Positions 1 to 59,759 of a stretch of 64,000 bases of DNA are shown here, in pieces. The position numbers were made by a program, and so were the translations under genes. Source of the stretch: Escherichia coli (GTDB lineage Bacteria > Pseudomonadota > Gammaproteobacteria > Enterobacterales > Enterobacteriaceae); assembly GCF_046105845.1 (NCBI RefSeq), contig NZ_CP151004.1; one strand, 5' to 3'. Position 1 is the stretch's first letter, and every line of letters starts with the position of its first letter. The notes under the pieces were generated by a model. It was not told where the DNA came from, did no database searches, and worked only from the letters and a program-made list of their open reading frames with translations.

Positions 1-27
1 ACCCGGCAGTTACGCCGGGTATAAAAA

Positions 28-774
28 TTACTGACGGTGGACATTCAGTCCGGCATAGCTTTGGGTAACCGGCATCATTTCCAGGGTATTGATATTGACG
101 TGAGCAGGCAGCGTTGACACCCACCAGACGGCTTCGCTGACATCTTCTGGCGTCAATGCAACGGTATTTTGATAGGTTTTTTCCGCTTTACCGTCATCGC
201 CTTTAAAGCGGACATTGGAAAACTCGGTGCCACCCACCAGACCCGGTTCGATGTCGGTGACGCGCACCGCCGTACCATGCAGGTCCGTACGCAGATTCAG
301 GCTAAACTGACGAACAAACGCTTTCGTCGCACCGTAAACGTTACCACCGGCATACGGCCAGCTACCTGCCGTTGAGCCAATGTTAATAATATGACCATGA
401 TTACGTTCAACCATACCCGGTAAGACGGCGCGCGTCATATATACCAGGCCTTTGTTGTTGGTATCAATCATCGTTTCCCAGTCTTCAACGCTGGCTTTAT
501 GCGCAGGCTCCATGCCCAACGCCAGGCCGGCATTATTTACCAGGATATCAATATTGCACCACTCGGCAGGAAGCGATGCCAGCATCTCTTCAATAGCGGC
601 GCGGTTGCGAACGTCCAGTTGGGCGATATACAGATTATCTCCCAGTTCGTCTTTTAACTCCTGCAACCGTTCCTGGCGACGGCCAGTGGCGATAACTTTA
701 TGCCCTTGTTGAATAAAACGACGAGTAATGCATTCACCAAAACCTGCCGTTGCTCCAGTTACTAAAACGATCAT
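28..774 (-). CDS. ydfG: NADP-dependent 3-hydroxy acid dehydrogenase (short-chain dehydrogenase)
   Basis: ORF 28..789; translation from MIVLVTGATAGFGECITRRF has the SDR Rossmann motif TGATAGFG and matches E. coli YdfG (248 aa). The track start is an upstream TTG; the ATG at 772-774 is preferred. Confidence 0.93.
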   Translation of the reverse strand: MIVLVTGATAGFGECITRRFIQQGHKVIATGRRQERLQELKDELGDNLYIAQLDVRNRAAIEEMLASLPAEWCNIDILVNNAGLALGMEPAHKASVEDWETMIDTNNKGLVYMTRAVLPGMVERNHGHIINIGSTAGSWPYAGGNVYGATKAFVRQFSLNLRTDLHGTAVRVTDIEPGLVGGTEFSNVRFKGDDGKAEKTYQNTVALTPEDVSEAVWWVSTLPAHVNINTLEMMPVTQSYAGLNVHRQ

Positions 775-910
775 CTCACTGTTCCTCAACGCTTTTGTGT
801 GTCAATAACATAGCACGTGATGCTTAAGAGCGGGTAATACTGGTTTGCAAGATTGCACTCCGTTATCAGTAAGCCTACGCTATGGAACACCTCGCGTTCA
901 GGAGAAGAAA

Positions 911-2956
911 ATGACAACAATGAATCCTTTCCTTGTGCAAAGCACACTGCCGTATTTGGCTCCCCATTTTGATCAAATTGCCAATCATCACTATCGCCCG
1001 GCATTCGATGAGGGAATGCTGCAAAAGCGGGCAGAAATTACTGCCATCGCGCTTAACCCGCAAACGCCTGATTTCAACAATACTATTCTGGCACTGGAAC
1101 AAAGCGGAGAATTACTTACCCGCGTTACCAGCGTCTTTTTTGCGATGACTGCGGCGCATACTAATGATGAATTACAGCGTCTTGATGAACAGTTTTCCGC
1201 TGAACTGGCGGAACTGGCTAATGATATCTATCTGAACGGTGAATTATTCGCGCGGGTAGATGCTGTCTGGCAACGCCGTGAATCCCTGGGACTTGATAGT
1301 GAATCCATCCGCCTGGTGGAGGTCATTCATCAACGTTTTGTCCTTGCCGGAGCCAAACTTGCACAAGCTGATAAAGCAAAATTAAAAGTACTGAATACAG
1401 AAGCTGCGACTCTGACCAGCCAGTTTAACCAGCGGTTACTGGCAGCAAATAAATCCGGCGGTCTGGTTGTGAACGATTTCGCGCAGCTGGCAGGAATGAG
1501 TGAGCAAGAGATTGCTCTGGCGGCAGAGGCGGCTCGCGAGAAAGGTCTGGATAACAAATGGCTGATTCCGTTGCTGAATACCACCCAGCAACCAGCGCTT
1601 GCTGAACTGCGCGATCGCGCGACGCGTGAAAAACTGTTCACTGCGGGCTGGACGCGAGCGGAAAAAAATGATGCCAATGATACCCGCGCTATCATTCAAC
1701 GTCTGGTGGAGATCCGCGCGCAGCAGGCGAAACTGCTTGGTTTCCCTCATTATGCCGCATGGAAAATCGCCGATCAGATGGCAAAAACGCCAGAAGCAGC
1801 ACTCAACTTTATGCGGGAAATTGTTCCAGCGGCGCGTCAACGTGCGAGCGATGAATTAGCCTCTATACAGGCGGTTATCGATAAGCAGCAGGGCGGGTTT
1901 AGCGCGCAGCCGTGGGACTGGGCATTTTATGCCGAGCAGGTAAGACGTGAGAAATTCGATCTCGATGAATCGCAGCTCAAGCCATATTTTGAATTAAACA
2001 CGGTGTTGAATGAAGGTGTATTCTGGACCGCGAATCAGCTCTTCGGTATTAAGTTTGTCGAACGTTTTGATATTCCTGTCTACCATCCTGACGTTCGTGT
2101 GTGGGAAATTTTTGATCATAATGGCGTGGGGCTGGCGTTATTTTACGGTGATTTCTTCGCCCGTGATTCAAAAAGCGGCGGTGCATGGATGGGCAATTTT
2201 GTTGAGCAATCAACGCTTAATGAAACGCACCCGGTAATTTATAACGTCTGCAATTATCAGAAACCCGCCGCTGGGGAGCCTGCGTTGTTACTCTGGGATG
2301 ATGTAATAACCTTATTCCATGAATTTGGTCATACGCTGCACGGCCTCTTTGCCCGCCAGCGTTATGCCACGCTTTCCGGCACCAACACGCCGCGTGATTT
2401 TGTCGAATTTCCGTCGCAAATCAACGAACACTGGGCAACGCATCCGCAGGTATTCGCTCGCTACGCCCGGCATTATCAGAGCGGGGCAGCAATGCCTGAC
2501 GAACTGCAACAGAAAATGCGTAATGCCAGCCTGTTCAATAAAGGGTATGAGATGAGCGAACTGCTTAGCGCCGCACTTCTCGATATGCGCTGGCATTGCC
2601 TGGAAGAAAACGAAGCAATGCAGGATGTCGATGATTTCGAATTGCGGGCGCTGGTGGCGGAAAATATGGATCTTCCCGCTATACCGCCACGCTATCGCAG
2701 CAGTTATTTCGCCCATATTTTTGGTGGCGGATATGCCGCAGGTTATTACGCTTATCTGTGGACACAAATGTTGGCCGATGATGGTTACCAGTGGTTTGTT
2801 GAGCAGGGCGGATTAACGCGTGAAAATGGGCTGCGTTTTCGCGAGGCGATCCTATCCAGAGGTAACAGCGAAGATCTGGAACGCCTGTATCGACAATGGC
2901 GCGGTAAGGCACCTCAGATTATGCCGATGCTGCAACATCGTGGCTTGAACATATAA
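911..2956 (+). CDS. dcp: Dipeptidyl carboxypeptidase II (M3 family zinc metallopeptidase)
   Basis: ORF 845..2956; the conserved protein starts MTTMNPFLVQSTLPYLAPHF at the ATG at 911, preceded by GGAGAAG. HEFGH zinc motif present (LFHEFGHTLHG). Confidence 0.95.
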   Translation: MTTMNPFLVQSTLPYLAPHFDQIANHHYRPAFDEGMLQKRAEITAIALNPQTPDFNNTILALEQSGELLTRVTSVFFAMTAAHTNDELQRLDEQFSAELAELANDIYLNGELFARVDAVWQRRESLGLDSESIRLVEVIHQRFVLAGAKLAQADKAKLKVLNTEAATLTSQFNQRLLAANKSGGLVVNDFAQLAGMSEQEIALAAEAAREKGLDNKWLIPLLNTTQQPALAELRDRATREKLFTAGWTRAEKNDANDTRAIIQRLVEIRAQQAKLLGFPHYAAWKIADQMAKTPEAALNFMREIVPAARQRASDELASIQAVIDKQQGGFSAQPWDWAFYAEQVRREKFDLDESQLKPYFELNTVLNEGVFWTANQLFGIKFVERFDIPVYHPDVRVWEIFDHNGVGLALFYGDFFARDSKSGGAWMGNFVEQSTLNETHPVIYNVCNYQKPAAGEPALLLWDDVITLFHEFGHTLHGLFARQRYATLSGTNTPRDFVEFPSQINEHWATHPQVFARYARHYQSGAAMPDELQQKMRNASLFNKGYEMSELLSAALLDMRWHCLEENEAMQDVDDFELRALVAENMDLPAIPPRYRSSYFAHIFGGGYAAGYYAYLWTQMLADDGYQWFVEQGGLTRENGLRFREAILSRGNSEDLERLYRQWRGKAPQIMPMLQHRGLNI

Positions 2957-2967
2957 ACACCACCAAT

Positions 2968-2997
2968 GGCTGGCCTGGAGAAATCGCCAGGCCAGCC
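2968..2997. terminator. Perfect 11-bp stem hairpin (ggctggcctgg / ccaggccagcc) between the dcp stop and the convergent ydeJ remnant; likely bidirectional terminator
   Basis: Inverted repeat read directly; no strong T-tract on either side. Coordinates approximate. Confidence 0.5.
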
Positions 2998-3000
2998 TGG

Positions 3001-3085
3001 TTAGAGCAGTAATTGCAGCAGCTGGGCGAGGGCAAACCTCACCGCTAATGCGAATGCCGTTTCGCAGTCGCCAGCAAAATTACTT
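3001..3085 (-). pseudogene. ydeJ: 3' remnant of ydeJ (CinA/PncC-like), only about 25 C-terminal codons retained
   Basis: Minus-strand translation ending at the stop at 3001-3003 reads ...NFAGDCETAFALAVRFALAQLLQLLL*, resembling a CinA/PncC C-terminus. No ORF of 60 aa or more continues upstream. K-12 has a full ydeJ between dcp and ydeI (from memory). Confidence 0.35.
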
Positions 3086-3320
3086 TTTTTGTATACCCTT
3101 CCGTTATAATAATTTTCAAATTTATAAATCTGATTGTTCTGAAATATGTTTAAGACTCTTTAATCTTCTTCTTACTTTAGTGAGTAAAATTCTCTGAATA
3201 TTTGACAGCTAGTTGCCTGATTTTAAATGCCTTATAACAATTGGCAGTATTCTTATTTGTCAATTATAAAAATAGCAACCAGACTTAATAAGTCAAACCA
3301 AACGCAATTAAGGAGTCAGT

Positions 3321-3713
3321 ATGAAATTTCAGGCCATTGTATTAGCAAGTTTTCTTGTCATGCCTTATGCGTTGGCAGATGACCAGGGCGGATTAAAACA
3401 GGATGCAGCGCCACCGCCGCCTCATGCAATAGAAGATGGCTATCGCGGAACCGATGATGCAAAAAAAATGACCGTTGATTTCGCAAAAAAAATGCACGAT
3501 GGCGCTTCGGTTTCACTACGCGGTAATTTGATTTCTCACAAAGGAGAGGACCGTTACGTTTTTCGCGATAAGAGCGGTGAAATTAATGTTGTTATTCCTG
3601 CGGCAGTCTTTGATGGACGAGAAGTTCAGCCGGACCAGCTGATCAACATTAGCGGTAGTCTGGATAAGAAAAGCGCTCCGGCCGTCGTTCGGGTCACTCA
3701 TTTGCAGAAATAA
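3321..3713 (+). CDS. ydeI: BOF/YgiW-family periplasmic OB-fold stress protein
   Basis: 130-aa ORF with signal peptide [25 protein letters not shown] Shine-Dalgarno 7 nt upstream; matches E. coli YdeI. Confidence 0.9.
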
Positions 3714-3967
3714 AAATAAATTAGCCTGATGGCCTGAACTACTGGGCCATTAGGTTATTGGGTTATGCTATTTATCATCCTTTTAATTGCGATAATGCAG
3801 GGTTAATTTACAGAATTAAACACTTTTTTATCTGCTGATTTTGTTTCAAATCACAATGTTATCTCAGAGATGACTCATAACTTAGGATTTCTATGAAAAT
3901 ATTGACGTAATTTTGCTTTTCTCTCGTTAGAATAGCGCGCACAAGGAACTGTGAAAAAGGAGTGGCA

Positions 3968-4858
3968 ATGATCAAGAAGACAACGGAAATTGATGCCATC
4001 TTGTTAAATCTCAATAAGGCTATCGATGCCCACTACCAGTGGCTGGTAAGTATGTTTCACAGCGTAGTCGCGAGAGATGCCAGTAAGCCAGAAATAACGG
4101 ATAACCATTCTTATGGACTGTGCCAGTTTGGTCGGTGGATTGATCATCTGGGGCCACTCGATAACGATGAATTACCTTACGTTCGGCTAATGGATTCTGC
4201 CCATCAACATATGCATAACTGTGGTCGGGAATTAATGCTGGCTATTGTTGAAAATCACTGGCAGGACGCGCATTTCGACGCCTTTCAGGAAGGGTTGCTT
4301 TCTTTTACTGCGGCATTAACCGATTACAAAATTTATTTGCTGACGATCCGTAGCAATATGGATGTTTTGACGGGATTGCCGGGTCGTCGGGTTCTTGATG
4401 AATCCTTTGATCATCAGTTACGCAACGCTGAGCCTCTGAATCTTTATTTAATGTTGTTGGATATTGACCGATTTAAATTGGTTAATGATACCTACGGGCA
4501 TTTAATCGGCGATGTAGTACTACGCACCCTGGCAACTTACTTAGCCAGTTGGACGCGTGATTACGAAACGGTTTATCGCTACGGGGGGGAAGAATTTATC
4601 ATTATTGTTAAAGCGGCTAATGATGAAGAAGCATGTCGTGCAGGTATCAGAATTTGCCAGTTAGTCGATAACCATGCCATCACACATTCTGAAGGGCATA
4701 TCAACATTACCGTGACTGCAGGTGTGAGTCGCGCATTTCCTGAAGAGCCTCTGGATGTGGTCATTGGAAGAGCGGACCGGGCAATGTATGAGGGTAAGCA
4801 AACCGGAAGAAATCGCTGTATGTTTATTGACGAACAAAATGTGATTAACCGAGTTTAA
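3968..4858 (+). CDS. dgcZ: Zinc-sensing diguanylate cyclase (CZB domain + GGDEF)
   Basis: ORF 3962..4858; conserved start MIKKTTEIDAILLNL at 3968; active-site motif RYGGEEF present; matches DgcZ/YdeH (296 aa). Confidence 0.93.
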   Translation: MIKKTTEIDAILLNLNKAIDAHYQWLVSMFHSVVARDASKPEITDNHSYGLCQFGRWIDHLGPLDNDELPYVRLMDSAHQHMHNCGRELMLAIVENHWQDAHFDAFQEGLLSFTAALTDYKIYLLTIRSNMDVLTGLPGRRVLDESFDHQLRNAEPLNLYLMLLDIDRFKLVNDTYGHLIGDVVLRTLATYLASWTRDYETVYRYGGEEFIIIVKAANDEEACRAGIRICQLVDNHAITHSEGHINITVTAGVSRAFPEEPLDVVIGRADRAMYEGKQTGRNRCMFIDEQNVINRV

Positions 4859-4862
4859 GCTC

Positions 4863-4879
4863 CGTTTAACATTCATTGA
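4863..4879 (+). promoter_or_regulatory. Candidate PhoP box (cGTTTA-N5-cATTGA) at the -35 position of the mgrR promoter
   Basis: Direct-repeat-like hexamers read from sequence, second half degenerate; mgrR is a known PhoPQ-activated sRNA. Coordinates approximate. Confidence 0.3.
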
Positions 4880-4904
4880 GAAAACTGATGCTACTGTGTC
4901 AACG

Positions 4905-5002
4905 ATCCGTTATCAGTGCAGGAAAATGCCTGTTAGCGTAAAAGCAAAACACAAATCTATCCATGCAAGCATTCACCGCCGGTTTACTGGCGGTTTTTTT
5001 TC
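4905..5002 (+). ncRNA. mgrR: MgrR small RNA (PhoP-regulated, Hfq-dependent), ending at an intrinsic terminator
   Basis: Position between dgcZ and mgtS as in K-12. 3' end set by the hairpin plus T8 run at about 4976-5001; 5' end is inferred from the expected ~98 nt length and was not read from a clear -10 element. Confidence 0.4.
4976..5001 (+). terminator. Rho-independent terminator (ccgcc...ggcgg stem followed by TTTTTTTT)
   Basis: GC stem followed by a run of 8 T read directly from sequence. Confidence 0.7.
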
Positions 5003-5009
5003 GCCGTCA

Positions 5010-5049
5010 TAAAAATCAGGCCCCTTGTACACAACTGTAACAAGGGGCC
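5010..5049 (-). terminator. Rho-independent terminator for mgtS (10-bp perfect stem ggccccttgt / acaaggggcc, U-rich tail on the minus strand)
   Basis: Perfect inverted repeat; minus-strand RNA continues UGAUUUUUAUG. Lies 28 nt downstream of the mgtS stop. Confidence 0.65.
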
Positions 5050-5076
5050 GGTTAGGTGAGGGATTATCTCCGTTCA

Positions 5077-5172
5077 TTAGTCATCCCATTTGTGGCTGAA
5101 ATACGCGGCCAGAAAACCAGAAAATAAAATTATTCCCAGTACGGCCATAAAAACATTCATATTACCCAGCAT
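5077..5172 (-). CDS. mgtS: Small membrane protein MgtS (31 aa), PhoP-regulated regulator of MgtA stability
   Basis: Minus-strand translation is MLGNMNVFMAVLGIILFSGFLAAYFSHKWDD*, matching MgtS/YneM as I recall it; GGAGG Shine-Dalgarno 8 nt upstream. Not in the ORF track because it is under 60 aa. Confidence 0.85.
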   Translation of the reverse strand: MLGNMNVFMAVLGIILFSGFLAAYFSHKWDD

Positions 5173-5298
5173 TATTTGCCTCCGTTTATGGTGTGGTGTG
5201 TTTCCTCGCTTACCTTAATTTTCATCTCAATGAGAAAGATATTAGCAGAGGTAACCTAAACGAAGGCTGAATTAAATCTTTATTGTGTTCGACTTAAA

Positions 5299-6486
5299 TC
5301 AACAAAGCGCGGGCTGCCCCCACGGTCTTGCACGAATTCCTTTTAACATCAGCACCCACGCAGCAATAATCACCAACGCTAAGATGATAAACAGCGAGGA
5401 AGGCGGCAGGTTGGTTAGCACTACGCCACTCACTAATGGGTTAATCGCGGCACCAAGCCAGCCTAAAGACTGGGCGGAAAAATAGCTGGCTTTCATTCCT
5501 GGCGGCGCAATATGGTCAATCAACATATACTCGCCCGGCGCATAAATGATTTCACCGACAGTAAATACCGCAGCTGACATACCCCACAATAGCAGGCTGT
5601 TGCCGGAAAAAATAAAACCGACCAGACCGATGACGAAACAGAGGGTGCCTGCTGTCATCAGCGTGCGGATGTTAGCCGGGTTAAGTCGCCGGCCCACGGA
5701 ATATTGCAACGTAACTACCATGGCAGCATTCACTGGAAGAACAACCGCGACCACCTTTTCGGCAAAATCCCCATCAGCAATCACCATCACATATTGTGAA
5801 ATGCATGAAGCAAATGCGCCGCTAACAAAAGAAGCCAGAAAGCCAGAGCAGGTAAACCACAACAGTGCTTTATCTTGTAATAAAACTTTCGGCGACCAGG
5901 CACTGGCTGTTTCCGTGGCGATGATTTTCTCGCTGCGCTTTACCCAAATTTGAATGAAAAGCATGGGAAACGCGGAACAGATAGCTGCCAGCCAAAAGGG
6001 CAGATTGATGCTCTGCATCACCAACAGCGTGCCGAGCGGCGGACCGATGGTCCAGCCAATGTTGAGCATGGTGTAGTTGATTGAGAAGATTTTCGTTTTG
6101 CTGGTGGACGAAAGATTGTCGGCAAACCAGGCTTTCAACACAGTAGCAAAAACGGAATAGGCGCAGTTAATGAGGGCAAAAAAGAGCACCACCAGCGTCA
6201 CGTTATTCACTAAAGGAATGGCAATAAAACCGCAGGCGAAGGCGGTAATTGCCAGTAACATATAGCGTTTCTTGTCGAACTTATCCGCCAGGATACCAAA
6301 ACCGAGGCTAAAAACGACGCCAATAGTGAGCGCAATTGTCATCGCATAACCGATTAGATCGACACTCAGGCTGTACTGGCGACTCAAGTAAATGGTCATA
6401 AACGGCAGCGTAGCGCCGCGTCCGATGGTTAATAACAACGACGAGGCAAGAAGGGCGCTGGTAGAGCGTCGTAGGGATAAGTTCAT
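5299..6486 (-). CDS. ydeE: MFS transporter (dipeptide/arabinose exporter family)
   Basis: 395-aa ORF, multi-TM MFS-like sequence from MNLSLRRSTSALLASSLLLTIG; matches YdeE. Confidence 0.92.
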   Translation of the reverse strand: MNLSLRRSTSALLASSLLLTIGRGATLPFMTIYLSRQYSLSVDLIGYAMTIALTIGVVFSLGFGILADKFDKKRYMLLAITAFACGFIAIPLVNNVTLVVLFFALINCAYSVFATVLKAWFADNLSSTSKTKIFSINYTMLNIGWTIGPPLGTLLVMQSINLPFWLAAICSAFPMLFIQIWVKRSEKIIATETASAWSPKVLLQDKALLWFTCSGFLASFVSGAFASCISQYVMVIADGDFAEKVVAVVLPVNAAMVVTLQYSVGRRLNPANIRTLMTAGTLCFVIGLVGFIFSGNSLLLWGMSAAVFTVGEIIYAPGEYMLIDHIAPPGMKASYFSAQSLGWLGAAINPLVSGVVLTNLPPSSLFIILALVIIAAWVLMLKGIRARPWGQPALC

Positions 6487-6680
6487 TTGTCTGTCCGGCA
6501 GTGCGTTTCGTTATGTTTTGTTTTAGAGATGTAAAGAAATAGCATGGCAAAAATCCGAAGTATAGCGACTTATTTGCGCATTAATGCCGTCGTAAAGGGT
6601 GACTAACGAATCAACTGTTAAAGAAAAGTAAATTCAGCTAAGTTGATTGCTTACAAAAGATGAAATTCAGAGGCGGTAGA

Positions 6681-7580
6681 ATGTCGCGAAAAGATGGGGT
6701 GTTGGCGCTACTGGTAGTGGTCGTATGGGGGCTAAATTTTGTGGTCATCAAAGTGGGGCTTCATAACATGCCACCGCTGATGCTGGCCGGTTTGCGCTTT
6801 ATGCTGGTTGCTTTTCCGGCTATCTTTTTTGTCGCACGACCGAAAGTACCACTGAATTTGCTGCTGGGGTATGGATTAACCATCAGTTTTGCGCAGTTTG
6901 CTTTTCTTTTTTGTGCCATTAACTTCGGTATGCCTGCTGGTCTGGCTTCGTTGGTGTTACAGGCACAGGCGTTTTTTACTATCGTGCTTGGCGCGTTTAC
7001 TTTCGGTGAGCGACTGCATGGCAAACAATTGGCGGGGATCGCCTTAGCGATTTTTGGCGTACTGGTGTTAATCGAAGATAGTCTGAACGGTCAGCATGTG
7101 GCGATGCTCGGCTTTATGTTGACCCTGGCGGCAGCATTTAGTTGGGCGTGTGGCAACATCTTCAATAAAAAGATCATGTCGCACTCAACGCGTCCGGCGG
7201 TGATGTCGCTGGTAATCTGGAGCGCATTAATCCCAATCATTCCCTTCTTTGTTGCCTCGCTGATTCTCGATGGTTCCGCAACCATGATTCACAGTCTGGT
7301 TACTATCGATATGACCACCATCTTGTCTCTGATGTATCTGGCGTTTGTGGCGACAATTGTTGGTTATGGGATCTGGGGGACGTTACTGGGACGCTATGAA
7401 ACCTGGCGGGTTGCACCGTTATCGTTACTGGTGCCCGTAGTAGGACTGGCAAGTGCGGCACTATTGTTGGATGAACGCTTAACGGGTCTACAATTTTTCG
7501 GGGCGGTGCTCATTATGACCGGGCTGTATATCAATGTATTTGGCTTGCGGTGGCGTAAAGCGGTAAAGGTTAGAGGCTAA
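6681..7580 (+). CDS. eamA: Cysteine/O-acetylserine exporter (DMT/EamA family)
   Basis: ORF 6660..7580; conserved start MSRKDGVLALLVVVVWGLNF at 6681 gives 299 aa as in EamA/YdeD. Confidence 0.93.
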   Translation: MSRKDGVLALLVVVVWGLNFVVIKVGLHNMPPLMLAGLRFMLVAFPAIFFVARPKVPLNLLLGYGLTISFAQFAFLFCAINFGMPAGLASLVLQAQAFFTIVLGAFTFGERLHGKQLAGIALAIFGVLVLIEDSLNGQHVAMLGFMLTLAAAFSWACGNIFNKKIMSHSTRPAVMSLVIWSALIPIIPFFVASLILDGSATMIHSLVTIDMTTILSLMYLAFVATIVGYGIWGTLLGRYETWRVAPLSLLVPVVGLASAALLLDERLTGLQFFGAVLIMTGLYINVFGLRWRKAVKVRG

Positions 7581-7585
7581 ACCAT

Positions 7586-7629
7586 ACGCACAGAATGTGA
7601 TGTCAGCACTCTGTGCGTCTGCTTTTATC
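7586..7629 (+). terminator. eamA terminator: 9-bp stem (acgcacaga / tctgtgcgt) followed by a T-rich tract
   Basis: Hairpin plus gcttttat; the T-tract overlaps the stop codon of the convergent GntR-family gene (7625-7627). Confidence 0.55.
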
Positions 7630-8323
7630 GCGGGAAAAAGTACTTTACCTGGAACTCGAAAATATTGCTGTAAAGTAACGAATAATCCAGCGGAATAGAG
7701 TTACTATCCACAGCCTGGGTCTGAATTTTAAGTATGGGATCCCGTGGGCTGATCCGTAAAATACTGGCGATTTCTGGGGTAGGAAAAGTAGGGGAGAAAG
7801 TTTCAAAGGTGCCAATGATTTTGATCCCGCATTCGTTCTCAATATACGAAAATTTGGATTTTTGCATATGTGCTACGGTTAAATCAGGAAAACGTGCCAC
7901 TGACATCCACGTTTCTTCTAATTGTGCTGCATTATCCTCAATGAATCGCAGTCTCTTTATGTAATAAACCTGCTCACCAGTCACTAAATTCAGCTCAGTC
8001 GCAATAGGGGGAGAAGCATCCTGCACTTCAAATTTCATAATCTGACTTCCTGCCTCCTTGCCGCTTTTATGCGCAATTTCACTGAAGCTGTTCATGTGAT
8101 CAATGTGTGCAACAAAATTCTTTTTTTGAATGTATGTTCCTGAACCATGCTTTCTATGAATAACTCCTTCGCCTTCCAGCAAGGATAATGCCTTACGCAG
8201 GGTATTACGCGAAACATTATAACGAACAGCGAGTTCAGCTTCTGACGGCAACAAATCACCAACATGCCATGAATAGCCATTGATCTCGGATTTAAGTAAG
8301 CGGGCAATCTTTTGAAAAATCAC
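7625..8323 (-). CDS. GntR/HutC-family transcriptional regulator (N-terminal wHTH + UTRA effector domain)
   Basis: 232 aa; the segment LPSEAELAVRYNVSRNTLRKALSLLEGEGVIHRKHGSGTYI is a typical GntR HTH. Divergent from the PTS operon. Absent from K-12 by synteny (from memory). Confidence 0.85.
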   Translation of the reverse strand: MIFQKIARLLKSEINGYSWHVGDLLPSEAELAVRYNVSRNTLRKALSLLEGEGVIHRKHGSGTYIQKKNFVAHIDHMNSFSEIAHKSGKEAGSQIMKFEVQDASPPIATELNLVTGEQVYYIKRLRFIEDNAAQLEETWMSVARFPDLTVAHMQKSKFSYIENECGIKIIGTFETFSPTFPTPEIASILRISPRDPILKIQTQAVDSNSIPLDYSLLYSNIFEFQVKYFFPR

Positions 8324-8437
8324 TTTTGCACCTTTTAAGAGCCATTGAAAACAAGGGGTTGAGTCCTGATTGGTTTATCGTATGGCCGAGTCGTTTAATT
8401 ATTACCCTGATGTTGAACAACTTTATTGCTGTATTAC

Positions 8438-8520
8438 TGTGATCAATGTACCAGGACGTATAGCTACTGCGGGATATGATATTTACACAATGTAATCTGT
8501 TATATACCAGTAAGGGAAAA
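8438..8520. promoter_or_regulatory. Divergent promoter region with a CRP-like site (TGTGAtcaatgTACCA, ~8438-8453) and a near-palindromic HutC-type operator candidate (CTGTTATATACCAG, ~8507-8520) just upstream of the EIIB start
   Basis: Motifs read from sequence. Compared with CRP consensus TGTGA-N6-TCACA and with HutC-family dre-like palindromes (tGGTATAtACCa); both assignments are inference. Confidence 0.3.
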
Positions 8521-8521
8521 T

Positions 8522-8833
8522 ATGAAAAAGATATTGTTAGTTTGCGCTGCGGGCATGTCAACCAGTATGCTGGTTAAACGTATGATTGATCATGCTAACG
8601 CTATTTCACTTGAAGTTAATATTTCCGCATTGGCGATTGCAGAGGCTAAAGGGAAAATTAAAAATAACGAAGTTGACGTTGTTTTACTTGGCCCGCAAGT
8701 TCGCTTTCAGAAACCAGAGATTGAAGCTGTTGCACAGGGGAAAATGCCTGTAGCTGTTATCGAGATGAAAGACTATGGCACCATGAACGGACAGGCAGTT
8801 CTTGAATTTGCGATGAAACTACTGCAAGAGTAA
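8522..8833 (+). CDS. PTS EIIB component, lactose/cellobiose family
   Basis: 103 aa; MKKILLVCAAGMSTSMLVKRM carries the phospho-cysteine motif typical of Lac/Cel-family IIB. Confidence 0.9.
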   Translation: MKKILLVCAAGMSTSMLVKRMIDHANAISLEVNISALAIAEAKGKIKNNEVDVVLLGPQVRFQKPEIEAVAQGKMPVAVIEMKDYGTMNGQAVLEFAMKLLQE

Positions 8834-8947
8834 GAATCTAATATTATTAAACTATTACCTGAACTAACTTTTCACACATCATAAAATGGATATGGCATAC
8901 ATGCTTTATTGGGATGTATAAATATCCAGAACAGCAGGTATAAAAAA

Positions 8948-9819
8948 ATGGGATTAATGGCCTCATTCGAACGTGGAATGGAACGTTTTCTTGTTCCAGT
9001 TGCTATCAAGTTAAACTCACAAAAACATGTTGCAGCGGTGAGAGATGGATTCGTTTTTACGTTTCCAATTATTATGGCAAGTTCATTAATTATATTAATT
9101 AATTTTGCCATATTATCGCCAGACGGTTTTATTGCCGGATTACTGCATCTGAATAGCATTTTCCCCAACCTTGAAAAAGCACAAGCTATTTTTACTCCGG
9201 TAATGAATGGTTCTGTAAATATCATGTCAATTATGATTGCTTTCCTGGTCGCCAGGAATATGGCGATTAGCTATGAGCAAGATGATCTTTTATGCGGATT
9301 AACGGCAATAGGAGCATTTTTTATTGTTGGGCCGCTCAACACGGCACTACCTGGGGCGCGCCATATCCGATTACCTGGACTTCTATTAATGATGCATTCG
9401 CCAACTGCGGCGGTTCAGGTATGACGTTGGGGTTATTGTTGGCTATTTTTATCGCTTCTAAGCGTGCGGAATACCGTGATCTGGCAAAAATGTCATTTAT
9501 CCCCGGTATTTTCAATATCAATGAACCGATAATGTTCGGCCTTCCTATTGTACTTAACCCCATCATGATGGTGCCGTTTATTCTGGTTCCCATTGTTAAC
9601 TGTGCCATTGGTTACTTCTTTGTTTCGATGGAAATTATTCCACCGGTTGCTTATGCCGTGCCCTGGACTACGCCCGGACCTTTAATTGCTTTCCTCGGAA
9701 CCGGGGGAAACTGGCTGGCGTTACTGGTGGGTTTTTTATGTTTAGGTGTGGCGACAATGATCTATTTACCTTTTGTTATTGCCGCCAACAAGGTCAATAA
9801 CATGACAACTAACGGATAA
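8948..9819 (+). pseudogene. PTS EIIC component, lactose/cellobiose family, disrupted by an internal deletion with frame change
   Basis: Two overlapping ORFs in different frames (8909..9424 and 9292..9819). The first resembles an EIIC N-terminus (...[29 protein letters not shown]...), the second an EIIC C-terminus (...CGGSGMTLGLLLAIFIASKRAEY...IYLPFVIAANK). Combined coding potential is about 290 aa against ~430-450 aa for this family. Confidence 0.7.
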
Positions 9820-9840
9820 TCCCATTTACACAGGAAGGAG

Positions 9841-10158
9841 ATGTTGATGTTTGCAGATGAAGAACTTGTTATGGAGTTACTGGTCAACGCAGGACAGGCT
9901 CGTTCTGATGCGATGGAAGCCATACGTTGTGCCGGGCAAAAAGACTGGCAGGGCGCAACTCAGCTAATGGCCAGTTCTGAATGCGCCTGTCTTCAGGCGC
10001 ATAAGATTCAGACCGCGTTAATTAGTCAGGATGAAGGCTGTGGCAAAATAGAAGTTAATTTAATTCTGGTTCATGCACAGGATCATTTGATGAATGCAAT
10101 ATTATGCCAGGATTTAGCCAGGGAAATTATTTCATTAAGAAAAGAGCTCCATGCCTGA
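9841..10158 (+). CDS. PTS EIIA component, lactose/cellobiose family
   Basis: 105-aa ORF with helical EIIA-Lac/Cel-like sequence (MELLVNAGQARSDAMEAIRCA...). The start may be the second ATG at 9847, which has better spacing from GGAGG. Confidence 0.85.
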   Translation: MLMFADEELVMELLVNAGQARSDAMEAIRCAGQKDWQGATQLMASSECACLQAHKIQTALISQDEGCGKIEVNLILVHAQDHLMNAILCQDLAREIISLRKELHA

Positions 10159-10210
10159 TTTTTTCCTCCAGTGCGATAGCTGGAGGAAATTATTACACTC
10201 TTAAGGATAA

Positions 10211-13349
<3,139 letters not shown>

Positions 13350-13376
13350 GACTTCAGGAAGATATTACGGAGATAT

Positions 13377-13400
13377 CAGGCTCTGTGATCAGAGCCTGAC
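13377..13400. terminator. Hairpin (tcaggctctg / cagagcctga, 10-bp stem, 4-nt loop) between the convergent GH1 gene and marB
   Basis: Perfect inverted repeat read from sequence; no long T-tract. Coordinates approximate. Confidence 0.5.
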
Positions 13401-13405
13401 AATAA

Positions 13406-13624
13406 CTACATAGCGTGTTGATTATAATAGGGCACGCCGAGCGCATCCGACTTATCACTGCCAGTACCCATGTGATTTAAATCAAACGGTGGTTGTTCCT
13501 GCGATGGGGGAACAACCACGACATTGGCACAGGAAGTAACAACCTGCTGCGTGGTTTGTTCCGCAATGCCCTGCGTGGAAAAGAGAATAAACGCAGCTGC
13601 TATTGCGGATAAAAGTGGTTTCAT
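13406..13624 (-). CDS. marB: Multiple antibiotic resistance protein MarB (periplasmic)
   Basis: 72 aa, MKPLLSAIAAAFILFSTQGIA signal peptide; matches MarB. Confidence 0.92.
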   Translation of the reverse strand: MKPLLSAIAAAFILFSTQGIAEQTTQQVVTSCANVVVVPPSQEQPPFDLNHMGTGSDKSDALGVPYYNQHAM

Positions 13625-13655
13625 GATTGCCTCAGTGACGTTGTCACGTTATCAA

Positions 13656-14039
13656 CTAGCTGTTGTAATGATTTAATGGATGTAAAAAGCGCGATTCGCC
13701 CTGCATATTGGTCATCCGGTATTTATGTGGCGGAACATCAAAGTAATTTTTGAAGGTTCGGGTCAGAGTTTGTTGCGACTCGAAGCCATATCGTTCTGCC
13801 AGATAGAGTATCGGCTCGTTACTTTCCTTCAGCTTTTGCGCGATTTCCGTCATCTTACGGCTGCGGATGTATTGGCCTAATGAATGACCGGTTTCTTTTT
13901 TAAACATCCGTTGCAGGTGCCATTTAGAGTAACCCGAACGCTCTGACACTTTCTCCAGTGACAGTGGCGATTCCAGGTTGTCCTCGATCCAGTCCAAAAT
14001 GCTATGAATGGTAATAGCGTCAGTATTGCGTCTGGACAT
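13656..14039 (-). CDS. marA: AraC/XylS-family transcriptional activator MarA
   Basis: ORF 13656..14045; conserved start [23 protein letters not shown] (127 aa). Confidence 0.95.
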
Positions 14040-14059
14040 CGTCATACCTCTTTTTTTGT

Positions 14060-14494
14060 TTACGGCAGGACTTTCTTAAGCAAATGCTCAAGTGTTGCCA
14101 CTTCGTCCGCCGTCAGGTTTTTTGTTAATTCTTGATGCAGGTCCTGGCCAACTAATTGATGGCATTGTTCACATATTGCCGCGCCGCTGGTGGTAAGTTT
14201 TACCAGTACGCCGCGCTTGTCATTCGGGTTCGGCAACCTTTCCACCCAGCCTTTACAGACCAGGCGATCCAGCATACGGGTCAGCGCTCCCAGGTCGACC
14301 GACAACACTTTTTTCAGTTCAACCGGAGTAATACACGCCGCGCAGCGGATAGAGCAGAGCACCTTAAACTGTGCCGCGGTAATATCCAGCGGAGACAGAT
14401 ACTCATTAAGCAGGCGATCTTTCTTCTGATTAACCATATGGATTAAGCGACCCAATGGAATAATTTCATTGAACAGATCGCTGGTACTTTTCAC
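14060..14494 (-). CDS. marR: Transcriptional repressor MarR
   Basis: 144 aa [29 protein letters not shown]...; GTG start as in K-12. Confidence 0.95.
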
Positions 14495-14496
14495 AT

Positions 14497-14518
14497 TAGT
14501 TGCCCTGGCAAGTAATTA
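14497..14518 (-). promoter_or_regulatory. MarR operator, start-proximal site (TACTTGCCAGGGCAACTAAT), covering the marR ribosome-binding region
   Basis: Palindrome TTGCC-N3-GGCAA read on the minus strand immediately upstream of the marR GTG. Confidence 0.75.
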
Positions 14519-14530
14519 GTTGCAGGGGAT

Positions 14531-14552
14531 AATATTGCCCAGGCAAGTATAA
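14531..14552 (-). promoter_or_regulatory. MarR operator, promoter-overlapping site (ATACTTGCCTGGGCAATATTAT), containing the marRAB -10 (TATTAT)
   Basis: Second TTGCC-N3-GGCAA palindrome read on the minus strand. Confidence 0.75.
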
Positions 14553-14570
14553 GTCAAATGAATGAATTGA

Positions 14571-14593
14571 CCGATGCCACGTTTTGCTAAATC
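14571..14593 (-). promoter_or_regulatory. marbox (MarA/SoxS/Rob binding site) GATTTAGCAAAACGTGGCATCGG
   Basis: Matches the canonical marRAB marbox on the minus strand, upstream of the promoter. Confidence 0.75.
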
Positions 14594-14705
14594 GGTTCAA
14601 GTTTTGGTCAGTGCGATGCAAGGTTAGCTAAAGAGTGACACTTTATCGTTGTTTACCCCTTATACTTTTCGCTGATAACCCAGATACACAGGATAACAAC
14701 CACCA

Positions 14706-15371
14706 ATGTTAGATTTATTTAAAGCAATTGGCTTGGGGTTGGTGGTGTTACTACCGTTAGCTAACCCATTAACAACTGTCGCGTTATTTCTTGGCCTGGC
14801 AGGCAACATGAACAGTGCCGAACGTAATCGTCAGTCGTTGATGGCCTCGGTGTACGTCTTTGCCATCATGATGGTGGCGTATTACGCCGGGCAACTGGTG
14901 ATGGATACATTTGGCATTTCGATTCCCGGTCTGCGAATTGCAGGCGGCTTAATCGTCGCGTTTATCGGTTTTCGGATGCTCTTTCCGCAACAGAAAGCAA
15001 TTGATTCACCGGAAGCGAAAAGCAAGTCGGAAGAGCTGGAAGATGAACCCAGTGCCAATATTGCCTTTGTACCACTGGCAATGCCAAGTACCGCCGGTCC
15101 GGGAACCATTGCAATGATTATTAGCTCGGCGTCCACAGTGCGTCAGAGTTCAACCTTCGCTGATTGGGTGCTGATGGTTGCGCCGCCGCTGATCTTTTTC
15201 CTGGTGGCGGTTATTTTGTGGGGAAGCCTACGCAGCTCTGGCGCAATTATGCGGCTGGTGGGCAAGGGAGGCATTGAAGCGATCTCCCGCCTGATGGGAT
15301 TCCTGCTGGTATGTATGGGTGTGCAGTTTATTATTAACGGCATTCTGGAAATCATTAAAACGTACCATTAA
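14706..15371 (+). CDS. marC: MarC-family inner-membrane protein
   Basis: 221 aa [33 protein letters not shown]...; divergent from marRAB. Confidence 0.93.
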
Positions 15372-15392
15372 AAAAGGCCCGAATGGGCCTTT
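15371..15392. terminator. Bidirectional terminator hairpin (A-run, aggccc-gaat-gggcct, T-run) between convergent marC and sotB
   Basis: aaaaaggcccgaatgggccttt read directly. Confidence 0.65.
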
Positions 15393-15395
15393 CAA

Positions 15396-16586
15396 CTATT
15401 GCGTCTGTTCTTCGAGTGTCACTGGCCAGCGGCGAAAAATGATGATTGACCATATTAACGCGGCAAAAGCAGGCACCGCGCCCACATAACCAATCATCGA
15501 CATTGACCAGTGCAGACTGACCTGATTACCTACCAACGCGCCAGCGCCGATTCCAATATTAAATATCCCCGAGAATAGCGCCATCGCGACGTCGGTGGCA
15601 TCTGGTGCCAGCGCCAGCACTTTAACCTGCATACCAAGCCCGATGATCATCATCGCGATCCCCCAGAAAATACTTAGCACCCCGAGGTGTATTTCACTGT
15701 TCGCCGCAGGTAGCAGCAGTGCGAGGCACACCAGCAACAACGCAATCGCCGTACTCACCAACGCAGACGCATACTGATTACCCAGTTTCCCGAAAATCAC
15801 GCTGCCAATAATGCCCGCACCACCGAGTAATAACAGTAATGCCGTGGCAAAGTTGGCGCTGAATCCCGCAATGTTTTGCACAAAAGGCTCGATATAGCTG
15901 TATGCCGTGTAATGGGCGGTGACAACCACCACAGTTAACAAATAAATGCTCATTAATGCCGGGCGGCGGAACAATAGCGGGAGGCTTTTCAATGAACCGG
16001 AATGCTCACTGGGCAGCAAGGGAAGTAACTTAATCAGGCACAAAAGGGTAATAAACGCCCCGATACCAATCGCGAAGAAGGTCATTCGCCAGCCAAAATA
16101 CTGCCCCACAATGCGCCCGAGAGGTAAACCTAATACCATTGCCAGTGCTGTACCGGTGGCAATTAAACTCAACGCCTGCGCTCGCTTCCCGGCCGGAGCC
16201 ATACGGATCGCCAGAGACGCCGTAATCGACCAGAAAATCGCATGTGCAAAAGCCACACCAATGCGACTGATCACCAGAACGGTAAAACTCCACGACAAAA
16301 ACGACAGTACGTGACTGGCAATAAATACCACAAACAGGCAGATCAGTAATTTGCGCCGTTCAACCTGGCTGGTCATTAACATAAAAGGCAATGACATTAG
16401 CGCCACTACCCATGCATAAATCGTCAACATGATGCCGACCTGAGCGGTTTGCATGTGAAAACTTTGCGCAATGTCAGAGAGCAGGCCAACAGGGACAAAT
16501 TCGGTGGTGTTGAAGATGAAGGCGGCGACTGCCAGCGTAACGACCCGTAGCCACGCCACTTTGCGGGAAACAGTGTTTGTTGTCAT
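15396..16586 (-). CDS. sotB: MFS sugar efflux transporter
   Basis: 396 aa; matches SotB/YdeA. Confidence 0.92.
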
Positions 16587-16735
16587 AACAGATTATCGGG
16601 TGAGTTGCGAAAAAGTGATGAAATGATCTTAAAACGGTTAATGATGTGAATACAATGCATTTGTGATCTGGATCGCGTTTTCCGTTTCTCTGACGCTGAT
16701 TCTGTTCCGCGTCAGAGAGTCGGTAACATCACGGT

Positions 16736-17851
16736 TTAATGACGTTCAGGGAGGTCTGGCGTTTTGGCGGTTGCGGGTATAGGTGATCTGACAGGGGAGC
16801 GAGGCCTGTTTTTCACCAGGTCTTCGTGAGTAACTTTTGGCGGCGTTTCATTTTTTACAAAAAGTTTGAGGGTCCTGCGCGCCATATGTTTGATAATTTT
16901 ATCATCACTTAATGATGCTGGCATCAACACGTCAATCAAATCACTTTCATTGGGATTCATAAATTGGTGATAGTGCAATAACATATTGGCGAAAAATAAA
17001 AACAAGTCCTGAAAATGTGGAAAATCTTGTTCTGTTAAAAGGGATAAAAAGCAGATGCAGACTTCGGGTAGTACATGTTTGTTAGAACCTAGTGAATCCA
17101 TCAGACTTTGCAATAAATCCTCTTTTAATTCGCTGTCCGTTATGTCGAGAATAGCGGTGAGCAAGTTAGGTTCTTTATTCCCGAACCATCTGTGAACCTC
17201 AGAGTTATTCCATAATCGGGGGAGTATGACAAAATTACCGCGAGAGATAAAATTCAGGACAAGCAAATCAAACTGGCGTAAGTAATCTGCAGCGGTATGG
17301 TGATCCGGATGCAGGGGTTCAATATGTGGCGTATGCGCTCTTTTGATAGGAACGCCAGGGTTGATCATTGGAAATTGTTCTATAAAGTCATTCAGAAACA
17401 GAAAGAGCACACGCTCGACGCCAGTCTGAAATACGCGCCCCATAGTGACAGGCTTTGGGTTGGGAGCGCAAAAAATATTAATTTCCCCATCATGGCGGAA
17501 ATTATCTAAATAAATAGGGCTTAAATTTATCACTACCTGAAATTCAATATTTTCTTTGTGTCTTCCATTCCTGGCAGGATAAGTGAGTTTAAATTGAACT
17601 TTTTCATTGTATAGCGTGTCGTTACCCCGGAAAGAGGTTCTCTGAATATATGATAAGTTATCAAGGTTATTAAATATCTTTTTTGTGGCTGAGCTGATGT
17701 TTAAAGACGTACGCCACTCTTCATCACATATTATTGTACTTAGCGCATCAATAAAATCCTTTAAAACTTCTTTTACCTGAGGTGCAATATTACGAACGGG
17801 AAAATCATCAGGAAGAGATATGTAATTGCTGATGCTTACTGGCGTAACCAT
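16736..17851 (-). CDS. yneK: Uncharacterized protein YneK
   Basis: 371-aa ORF; length and sequence consistent with YneK. Confidence 0.85.
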   Translation of the reverse strand: MVTPVSISNYISLPDDFPVRNIAPQVKEVLKDFIDALSTIICDEEWRTSLNISSATKKIFNNLDNLSYIQRTSFRGNDTLYNEKVQFKLTYPARNGRHKENIEFQVVINLSPIYLDNFRHDGEINIFCAPNPKPVTMGRVFQTGVERVLFLFLNDFIEQFPMINPGVPIKRAHTPHIEPLHPDHHTAADYLRQFDLLVLNFISRGNFVILPRLWNNSEVHRWFGNKEPNLLTAILDITDSELKEDLLQSLMDSLGSNKHVLPEVCICFLSLLTEQDFPHFQDLFLFFANMLLHYHQFMNPNESDLIDVLMPASLSDDKIIKHMARRTLKLFVKNETPPKVTHEDLVKNRPRSPVRSPIPATAKTPDLPERH

Positions 17852-17934
17852 ATTTGCCCCATATAGTCATAAGTCATCGGAGCATCACTATATAGACCAT
17901 ATTAGCCGCAAGAACTATCAAAAATAGCTCATTG

Positions 17935-18810
17935 CTAACTCTGTTTTGCCGAGTCAGACACATCCAGTAGTTGAATAAATGCCTCAAGCGGACGCGTTTT
18001 TGCACCGCGACGCCAGACCAGCCAGGTTGTTAACCAACGCCATTGCTCAGCTAACGGCCACGCTTCAACCTGGTGATGCCCCGGCATACTTTCCAGCATA
18101 GAGCGTGGAATAAGCGCAATGCCTGCTCCTGCGACCACACAGGCCAACATCCCGTGATACGACTCCATCTCGTGAATAGTTCCCGGAGCGGCACCGTCAG
18201 CATGAAACCAGCTCTCGAAGTGGCGACGATATGAACAATTGGCGCGGAAGGCATAAATGTTACTGCCATTAACCTGACTGGCGCGGGTTACTGGCGCATG
18301 CCCTTGTGGCGTGACGATCATCAGCTCCTCGCGGTACACCGGTATCCCGTCAATGGCAGTATGGTTAATGGGCCCATCAATAAACGCCGCATTCAGTTTT
18401 CCCTCCAGCACACCTTCCAGCATAGTGCCGGAAGGGCCGGTGGAAAGTGAAAACTGAATTTTGGGATAACGACGGTTGAATTCCGCCAGCGTGGCCGGAA
18501 TGCGAACTGCAGCGGTGCTTTCCAGCGAACCAAGAGAAAATAAACCTTGCGGCTCATCGCCAGCGACAACGCTCCGCGCTTCATCCACTAACGCGAGAAT
18601 TTGTTGGCTATAGCGTAAAAAGTTATGCCCGGCAGGCGAGAGACGTAAACGCTGATTCTCGCGAATAAACAGATCAACCCCCAGTTCTGTTTCCAGCTGG
18701 CGTAGACGGGTAGTGAGATTCGACGGCACGCGATGCACTTTTGCTGCAGCCTGGGTAATGCTGCCAGCTTCGGCAACCGCGTTGAACATCTCCAGTTGGG
18801 TCAGATCCAT
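17935..18810 (-). CDS. yneJ: LysR-family transcriptional regulator
   Basis: 291 aa; N-terminal LysR HTH ([40 protein letters not shown]); divergent from sad. Confidence 0.9.
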
Positions 18811-18910
18811 GGCATTCTCAATTCGTGAATAAGTGGCTTAATATTATTCATTTTCAAGCAAGAGTAAATCTGCGTATCTTTTTACCATAACCCATAAAGG
18901 AGATACCCCG

Positions 18911-20299
18911 ATGACCATTACTCCGGCAACCCATGCAATTTCGATAAATCCTGCCACTGGTGAACAACTTTCTGTGCTGCCGTGGGCTGGCGCTGATGAT
19001 ATCGAAAACGCACTTCAGCTGGCGGCAGCAGGCTTTCGCGATTGGCGCGAGACAAATATAGATTATCGTGCTGAAAAACTGCGTGATATCGGTAAGGCTC
19101 TGCGTGTCCGTAGCGAAGAAATGGCGCAAATGATCACCCGTGAAATGGGCAAACCAATCAACCAGGCGCGCGCTGAAGTGGCGAAATCGGCGAATTTGTG
19201 TGACTGGTATGCAGAACATGGTCCGGCAATGCTGAAGGCGGAACCTACGCTGGTGGAAAATCAGCAGGCAGTTATTGAGTATCGCCCGTTGGGGACAATT
19301 CTGGCGATTATGCCGTGGAATTTTCCGTTATGGCAGGTGATGCGTGGTGCGGTTCCCATCATTCTTGCAGGTAACGGCTACTTACTTAAACATGCGCCGA
19401 ATGTGATGGGCTGTGCACAGCTCATTGCCCAGGTGTTTAAAGATGCGGGTATCCCACAAGGCGTATATGGCTGGCTGAATGCCGACAACGACGGCGTCAG
19501 TCAGATGATTAAAGACTCGCGCATTGCTGCTGTCACAGTGACCGGAAGTGTTCGTGCGGGAGCAGCTATTGGCGCACAGGCTGGAGCGGCACTGAAAAAA
19601 TGCGTACTGGAACTGGGCGGTTCGGATCCATTTATTGTGCTTAACGATGCCGATCTGGAACTGGCGGTTAAAGCGGCGGTAGCCGGACGTTATCAGAATA
19701 CCGGACAGGTTTGTGCAGCTGCAAAACGCTTTATTATCGAAGAGGGAATTGCTTCGGCATTTACCGAACGTTTTGTGGCAGCTGCGGCAGCCTTGAAAAT
19801 GGGCGATCCCCGTGACGAAGAGAACACTCTCGGACCAATGGCTCGTTTTGATTTACGTGATGAGCTGCATCATCAGGTGGAGAAAACCCTGGCGCAGGGT
19901 GCGCGTTTGTTACTGGGCGGGGAAAAGATGGCTGGGGCAGGTAACTACTATCCGCCAACGGTTCTGGCGAATGTTACCCCAGAAATGACCGCGTTTCGGG
20001 AAGAAATGTTTGGCCCCGTTGCGGCAATCACCATTGCGAAAGATGCAGAACATGCGCTGGAACTGGCTAATGATAGTGAGTTCGGCCTTTCAGCGACCAT
20101 TTTCACCACCGACGAAACACAGGCCAGACAGATGGCGGCACGTCTGGAATGCGGTGGGGTGTTTATCAATGGTTATTGTGCCAGCGACGCGCGAGTCGCC
20201 TTTGGTGGCGTGAAGAAGAGTGGCTTTGGTCGTGAGCTTTCCCATTTCGGCTTACACGAATTCTGTAATATCCAGACGGTGTGGAAAGACCGGATCTGA
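18911..20299 (+). CDS. sad: NAD+-dependent succinate-semialdehyde dehydrogenase
   Basis: 462 aa aldehyde dehydrogenase; matches Sad/YneI. Confidence 0.93.
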
Positions 20300-44832: not shown

Positions 44833-45113
44833 GAGCAATTCACCAATGTGAATCTCATTATTAATGAGGAGTGGTTTGTATTTGGAGCACTATGAAAAAT
44901 CACATAATATCTAAACGTTCAATAAACAACAGTAGTTAAACTTACTGTTATTTAAAATATTTACTTTGTAGCAAGGTTTTCCTGTTAAAAGAGAACCAAC
45001 ATTTATTACAAACGCATTAAGTCTGGAAACCCAGCGAGTCGCCGATGTATTAGCAACATTTACCGATTGTCTGATGTAACGGTTTCCCCGCTTATCCTCT
45101 TAACACATGGAGA

Positions 45114-45833
45114 ATGCATCAGATGCAAACTACGCGTACCCCCTACTCTGTTTCCTTTATGGCGACAGTGTTACTTTTATTGGTCTTTGCTTGCCATAGC
45201 ACCATTGCCAACGCAGCTGTCGCACTGGGTGCGACGCGGGTAATTTATCCGGCAAACCAGAAACAGGTTTTATTGCCTGTCACGAATAATGATCCTGCCA
45301 GTGTCTATCTCATTCAGTCATGGATAGAAAATGCAGGTGACCAAAAAGACACCCAGTTTGTCATTACCCCACCGCTTTTTTCCATGCAAGGTAAAAAAGA
45401 GAATACGCTGCGGATAATCAACGCCACTAATCATCAGTTACCAGGCGACCGTGAAAGCCTGTTCTGGGTGAATGTTAAAGCTATTCCTGCTATGGAAAAA
45501 GACCAGAAGAATGAGAATACATTACAGCTGGCAATTATTAGCCGCATAAAAATGTTTTATCGCCCCACGAACCTGGCAATGGCACCTGAAGAAGCGCCTG
45601 CAATGCTTCGGTTTCGTCGCAGCGGTAGCAAACTCACTCTTATTAATCCAACGCCCTACTTCATTACCGTAACAAATATGAAAGCAGGAAATAGCAATCT
45701 CCCAAACACCATGGTGCCGCCAAAAGGTGAAGTATCGGTGGATATCCCGCATGCTGCAACCGGGGATATCAGTTTTCAGACGATCAATGATTACGGTGCA
45801 TTAACTCCGCGTATTAAGGCAACCATGCAGTAA
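45114..45833 (+). CDS. Periplasmic fimbrial chaperone (PapD/FimC family)
   Basis: 239-aa ORF; mature N-terminus AVALGATRVIYP is typical of FimC-like chaperones. The start may be a downstream ATG. Confidence 0.85.
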   Translation: MHQMQTTRTPYSVSFMATVLLLLVFACHSTIANAAVALGATRVIYPANQKQVLLPVTNNDPASVYLIQSWIENAGDQKDTQFVITPPLFSMQGKKENTLRIINATNHQLPGDRESLFWVNVKAIPAMEKDQKNENTLQLAIISRIKMFYRPTNLAMAPEEAPAMLRFRRSGSKLTLINPTPYFITVTNMKAGNSNLPNTMVPPKGEVSVDIPHAATGDISFQTINDYGALTPRIKATMQ

Positions 45834-45874
45834 GCCAGTGACCTAATTAATAATAAACTCAATCGGAATTAAAA

Positions 45875-48526: not shown

Positions 48527-48539
48527 GGAACAATAGATT

Positions 48540-49070: not shown

Positions 49071-49082
49071 TCAGAGTCAGAT

Positions 49083-49586: not shown

Positions 49587-49645
49587 CGTCGATTCGATTT
49601 TCTTAGCCTCCTTTTTAAATCAATTTTTTAACCTTAGGATATATC

Positions 49646-50560: not shown

Positions 50561-50632
50561 TTGTGATTTTGACATTGGTCTATGCGCTCCATTCACGAAA
50601 ATTGCGCGGATATTTATTTTGTGAAGGCTATT

Positions 50633-50650
50633 ATCCTACATCTGTAAGAA
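50633..50650 (+). promoter_or_regulatory. EvgA box (ATCCTACA-tc-TGTAAGAA) upstream of ydeP
   Basis: Matches the EvgA 18-bp inverted-repeat consensus TTCYTACA-N2-TGTARGAA with one mismatch; ydeP is a known EvgA-activated acid-resistance gene. Confidence 0.6.
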
Positions 50651-53172: not shown

Positions 53173-53185
53173 TTCGCCTCCTCAT

Positions 53186-59722: not shown

Positions 59723-59759
59723 AAACAATAAAAGCCCTGCTGTACGGAGATAAAAATAA

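Follow-up and report, generated by a model that had tools for sequence, protein, structure and literature searches.

In Escherichia coli K-12, ydeJ (b1537; UniProt P31131) encodes a single-domain protein of the CinA/PncC family, the Salmonella orthologue of which is RdsA. YdeJ lacks NMN deamidase activity and was described as an inactive paralogue of the NMN deamidase (PMC3855486). In Salmonella, where the gene is now called rdsA, negative supercoiling represses its promoter, and the DNA of an rdsA deletion mutant is more supercoiled (PMC7387798). The protein matching the NCBIfam model NF002972 carries the NCBI/PGAP name '2-oxo-tetronate isomerase', for which we found no basis, the same two papers giving other descriptions. 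As a K-12 comparator we took the derivative MFDpir (locus L002), in which ydeJ occupies positions 1801–2319 of the locus. Its product of 172 residues ends in ...AVMHFAGDCETVLALAVRFALAQLLQLLL before the stop codon and scores 329 bits on NF002972 and 204 bits on the PncC-domain model TIGR00199. Given the latter match, the label 'CinA/PncC-like' is right, and so was the statement in the original prediction that K-12 has at this position a gene of about 170 residues convergent with dcp. In a scan of species-representative genomes with YdeJ, the homologues among the matches listed were at most 60% identical, and the motif AESCTGG was widespread.

The window analyzed here, a 64,000-nucleotide stretch of an E. 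coli genome (assembly GCF_046105845.1, contig NZ_CP151004.1), contains the ydfG–dcp–(gap)–ydeI–dgcZ region of the species, with mgtS/mgtT and ydeE also lying within bases 1–6500. The gene ydfG is found at 28–774 on the minus strand, as given by the open reading frames and the matching genomes. It is followed on the plus strand by an intact dcp at 911–2956, which encodes the 681-residue peptidyl-dipeptidase Dcp, carries the same annotation in matching genomes and closes with TAA at 2954–2956. Further along the same strand lie ydeI at 3321–3713 and dgcZ at 3968–4858. The intact ydeI encodes a YdeI-family stress-tolerance OB-fold protein of 130 residues (NCBIfam NF007471, 256.7 bits against a cutoff of 179). 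From the stop codon of dcp to the ATG of ydeI at 3321 we measured a gap of 364 bp, in agreement with the predicted 360 bp or so. In MFDpir, exactly this site is occupied by ydeJ, convergent with dcp and divergent from ydeI.

Within the gap, what survives of ydeJ is its last 79 bases, found at 3001–3080 on the minus strand as the stop codon (3001–3003) and 25 YdeJ-derived codons. The remnant encodes FAGDCETAFALAVRFALAQLLQLLL followed by the stop codon; the minus-strand translation of 3001–3080 ends in ...KKSNFAGDCETAFALAVRFALAQLLQLLL, and the frame closed by the TAA at 3001–3003 reads ...NGRVYKKSNFAGDCETAFALAVRFALAQLLQLLL. A tblastn search of the whole window with K-12 YdeJ gave one significant match, in which residues 147–172 align to 3081–3004 of the minus strand with 23 of 26 positions identical (E = 2.5e-9). 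The remaining matches all had E values of at least 0.5, and thus the window holds no other copy of ydeJ. Furthermore, hmmscan aligned the 26-residue remnant peptide to positions 148–172 of the 175 in NF002972, the YdeJ equivalog profile (E = 4.6e-7). Both searches identify the minus-strand peptide as the YdeJ C-terminus, as had been predicted from its resemblance to a CinA-family protein. Its position is orthologous as well, being between dcp and ydeI and convergent with dcp in the alignment with K-12, O157:H7 and two more distant relatives. We read the segment at 3001–3080 of the minus strand as a dead 3' fragment of ydeJ left by one ancestral 475-bp deletion, a reading to which we assign a probability of roughly 0.93.

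The remnant scores 29.7 bits on NF002972, below the 201-bit cutoff for the whole protein, and with 25 codons left it contains no complete CinA/PncC domain with a start codon. In its frame, 52 codons separate the terminal stop from the nearest stop upstream, and the sole ATG, GTG or TTG between the two would give a product of 13 residues. Given the 25 codons, the 29.7 bits and a start-to-stop length of at most 13 residues, the segment is a pseudogene fragment and not a functional ydeJ. Judged from its sequence, it should be unable to encode a meaningful product, and it is presumably untranslated because the start codon is gone. The idea that the deletion had created a new chimeric ORF was rejected, as the longest in-frame start-to-stop is these 13 residues; the 'hypothetical protein' annotated in some genomes, which might be taken for the product of such an ORF, is the same 81-bp pseudogene under another product name. 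Relative to the distant relative L094, two amino-acid changes in the remnant, V to A and L to F, are derived in the deletion alleles, consistent with neutral decay.

DNA alignment to the K-12 dcp–ydeJ–ydeI region revealed one clean gap of 475 bp between positions 3080 and 3081 of the window, corresponding to L002 1880–2354, and this single internal deletion accounts for the missing ydeJ. Homology to K-12 ydeJ, at the same chromosomal position, extends over its final 25 codons, its stop codon and the hairpin that follows. In contrast to K-12, the window lacks codons 1 to about 146 of the gene, the GTG start included, together with the 35 bp that precede them, so that the CinA domain is lost. 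The predicted removal of most of ydeJ by a deletion is thus confirmed by the single gap, while its size has to be corrected from about 450 bp to 475 bp, with the 35-bp leader included. The junction reads GCAAAA/TTAC. The two K-12 breakpoints, GCAAAA/TGCAT and GGTGAT/TTGC, share at most 1 bp (T) of microhomology, and alignment with them uncovered no inserted, foreign or repeated sequence at the junction. Nor did the breakpoints show an IS remnant, a target duplication or direct repeats several bp long. Given the shared length of at most 1 bp and the lack of foreign or repeated sequence, the event was a simple illegitimate deletion rather than an IS event.

To see how widely this allele is distributed, we searched 5426 complete E. 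coli genomes. The dcp flank is present in 5417 of them and the body of ydeJ, i.e., the deleted 475-bp segment, in 3618; a 56-bp probe for the window junction matches at full length in 1630 (about 30%). Both the ydeJ body and a match to the junction probe are absent from some 169 genomes. The deletion is therefore not specific to the genome of the window. That the gap might be an assembly or sequencing artefact of the window has a practically negligible chance, as the identical junction occurs in those 1630 independently assembled genomes and carries a PGAP annotation. At the remnant, all inspected genomes with the deletion allele have an 81-bp pseudogene called by PGAP, under the name '2-oxo-tetronate isomerase' or 'hypothetical protein'. 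Entries such as HHJ27_RS24695 (SCU-109), EGM66_RS28620 (strain 50579417) and M5T49_RS13235 (ST131 strain 4993) have the same junction and the same 81-bp feature, described in RefSeq as 'incomplete; partial in the middle of a contig; missing N-terminus'. The remnant is accordingly already known, being marked as a pseudogene in RefSeq, and represents a common allele rather than a new kind of feature; with about 30% of genomes carrying the deletion, it is real but ordinary. We found no description of the 475-bp deletion in the open-access papers searched. For annotators, an 81-bp pseudogene is what should be expected at this site, not an absent gene.

Two more distant relatives retain a full-length ydeJ in the order ydfG–dcp–ydeJ–ydeI–dgcZ(–mgtS). 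Over dcp, the window shares about 88% identity with one of them (L094, GCA_020783085.1) and about 72% with the other (L097), the YdeJ of which is labelled E. fergusonii by NCBI. In Enterobacter and Lelliottia the ydeJ homologue is likewise kept, with a ydeI homologue about 1.1 kb upstream on the opposite strand. Since more distant relatives keep the full gene among the same neighbours, the deletion is derived. The presence/absence polymorphism by itself would suit an ancestral short form into which K-12-type strains had gained ydeJ by insertion. Such a gain is scarcely credible, for the short form already holds 25 in-frame ydeJ codons and the stop codon, contiguous with the same hairpin, and the insertion would have had to bring in precisely the 146 codons that are absent, and in frame; the gene order of the two relatives speaks against it as well. 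As to the relatives themselves, the value of about 72% over dcp in L097 is lower than expected for E. fergusonii. YdeJ is 87% identical in L094, an Escherichia relative, and only 66% identical in the L097 protein, and it thus seems to evolve fast.

We aligned 12 sequences of the locus, comprising nine deletion and three full-length alleles with 515 columns common to all. Compared with K-12, O157:H7 and Ec-042-T20, the gap spans exactly 475 columns and is identical in 9/9 deletion alleles sampled. The full-length alleles differ from each other at 5–8 of the 515 positions (n = 3) and from every deletion allele at 19–29, whereas the deletion alleles differ among themselves at 2–20 (n = 9). The occurrence of the allele in distinct lineages, namely ST405-like strains and B2 types (ST131 and Nissle), might suggest that the same 475 bp were lost repeatedly at a hotspot. 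We consider this very unlikely: with 1 bp of microhomology and no repeats, nothing directs separate events to the same bases, and all sampled deletion alleles share junction-linked substitutions that are absent from all full-length alleles. Together, the identical gaps and the haplotype differences point to a single old event, with a second, nested one after it, rather than to recurrence. Judging from the identical breakpoints and the 12 aligned haplotypes, the 475-bp deletion most likely happened once.

In the 43 bp beside the junction (3081–3123 of the window and the same columns in L001–L003 and L084–L092), the deletion alleles differ from the full-length ones at 9 positions (21%), compared with 1–6% in neighbouring segments. 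A footprint of error-prone repair or relaxed constraint at this place was rejected, because L094 splits the changes roughly evenly between the two lineages. From this pattern, the divergence reflects an old split between haplotypes in a rapidly evolving, AT-rich spacer and not a signature of the deletion.

The second deletion joins the equivalent of window position 3123 to about 3627 (at L003 2923/2924 in ST131). About 504 bp are gone, and the ydeJ-proximal spacer is fused to the last 90 bp of ydeI, most of which is lost. This second gap is identical in the three B2-type alleles sampled, and its junction occurs in 1039 of the 5426 genomes, including ST131, Nissle and ExPEC XM, in which ydeI is truncated; by contrast, the window keeps ydeI intact. 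The ydeI body is present in 4371 genomes, and the state of the window, with ydeJ deleted and ydeI intact, in roughly 590–680 (11%–13%). The locus can therefore be used as a lineage marker with three states: both genes intact, ydeJ deleted, and ydeJ and ydeI both deleted. These comparisons enable us to propose a putative history of the locus. Initially, one ancestral deletion of 475 bp with essentially blunt ends would have taken the start codon, the 35-bp leader and about 146 of the 172 codons, leaving behind the stop codon with the 25 codons before it, as well as the hairpin common to the convergent dcp. Afterwards, descent, with recombination as a possible second route, would have carried the allele through much of the species, including ST405-like and B2 lineages. 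Finally, many B2 genomes would have lost most of ydeI as well, through another deletion of about 504 bp nested beside the first.

Between the stop codons of dcp and ydeJ lies a GC-rich hairpin at 2962–3001, with a core stem of 2968–2978 paired to 2987–2997 and outer ACCA/TGGT pairs. Its predicted folding energy is –28.8 kcal/mol on the plus strand (z = –4.7) and –30.5 kcal/mol on the minus strand (z = –4.1), with none of 200 shuffled sequences folding as well. The stem is conserved and the loops are variable across all alleles and L094. The hairpin thus has the stable GC-rich stem-loop of an intrinsic terminator, but no T/U-run follows the stem directly on either strand, the plus strand continuing with UGGUUAGAGC and the minus strand with AUUGGUGGUGUUUAU. 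A canonical terminator was rejected, a consensus scan of 2900–3400 having returned no terminator-like site. Of the bidirectional terminator proposed in the original prediction, the retention of the hairpin stands; without a T-run, its role as a bidirectional terminator is putative. It is probably a transcript-end or stabilizing structure. Formation of the 3' end of dcp and expression of ydeI are presumably unaffected by the deletion.

The spacer beyond the junction (3081–3320) is the kept part of the divergent, AT-rich ydeJ–ydeI intergenic region and includes the upstream region of ydeI. As anticipated, the sequence past the remnant is AT-rich, with a GC content of 27%–33% over 3040–3339 versus about 50% in the flanking genes. 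Two promoter-like sites on the minus strand, 3296–3269 and 3247–3220, are kept upstream of the junction and have equivalents in K-12; they could be the orphaned ydeJ promoter. These surviving sites, the strong and conserved hairpin, and the persistence of the 79-bp remnant across deep lineages would fit the retention of the remnant for a new function, either as a short non-coding RNA running from the orphan promoter to the hairpin or as a spacer at the 3' end of dcp. However, promoter-like matches are no commoner here than in shuffled sequence (2 found against 1.2 ± 1.1). Searched at a permissive threshold, Rfam returned no family, and a known RNA in the gap was rejected, since the best match, ar7, is at chance level (16.7 bits against a gathering threshold of 60; E = 0.86). 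Moreover, within the remnant the deletion alleles differ from each other by 1–3 substitutions per 80 bp, including the two derived amino-acid changes, as in neutral decay, and persistence without selection is feasible as small remnants decay slowly. We therefore hold a new function to be unlikely, and an orphan transcript from the spacer is possible but unsupported. Improbable, too, is the fuller proposal that the ydeJ promoter survives in the 240-bp spacer and drives a non-coding RNA from the remnant to the dcp hairpin in about 30% of E. coli, with loss of YdeJ/RdsA shifting the supercoiling set-point of B2- and D-type strains. If true, such an RNA would be a naturally arisen, lineage-specific transcript reporting supercoiling.

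Under the reading of a dead fragment, E. coli strains with the deletion allele have likely lost YdeJ/RdsA function. By analogy with Salmonella, they may lack the contribution of YdeJ, which could be to relax negative supercoiling slightly. Roughly one third of E. coli would then be naturally without YdeJ/RdsA, which in Salmonella is reported to lower negative supercoiling, and such isolates could therefore serve as natural knock-outs for testing its role in supercoiling.

Elsewhere in the window, an accessory PTS/porin/6-phospho-beta-glucosidase operon between eamA and marB contains a frameshifting deletion of 451 bp at 9328/9329, inside a cellobiose-type PTS EIIC gene. The gene is split into ORFs 8909–9424 and 9292–9819, which cover positions 1–110 and 278–420 of the TIGR00359 profile; the comparator has the segment at L085 9529–9979. 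A 56-bp probe for this junction matched none of the 5426 complete E. coli genomes, and the EIIC deletion thus appears private to the lineage of the window. Over 1–20000 and 20001–45000, identity to any complete E. coli genome stays below 99% (best 98.8%), and the best full-length matches over 45001–64000 are at 98.9%. The best-matching genomes change by third of the window, from ST405-like to AST215 to BEC1-S17. On these comparisons, the source lineage would either have few representatives among the complete genomes or be a local mosaic. Near 43334, downstream of hipA, about 7.8 kb are missing relative to the best-matching genome (L086 23434–31207), where the segment carries genes for a LysR regulator, a glutamine-amidotransferase-like protein and aldo/keto reductases, together with related genes; such a difference is ordinary accessory-gene variation.
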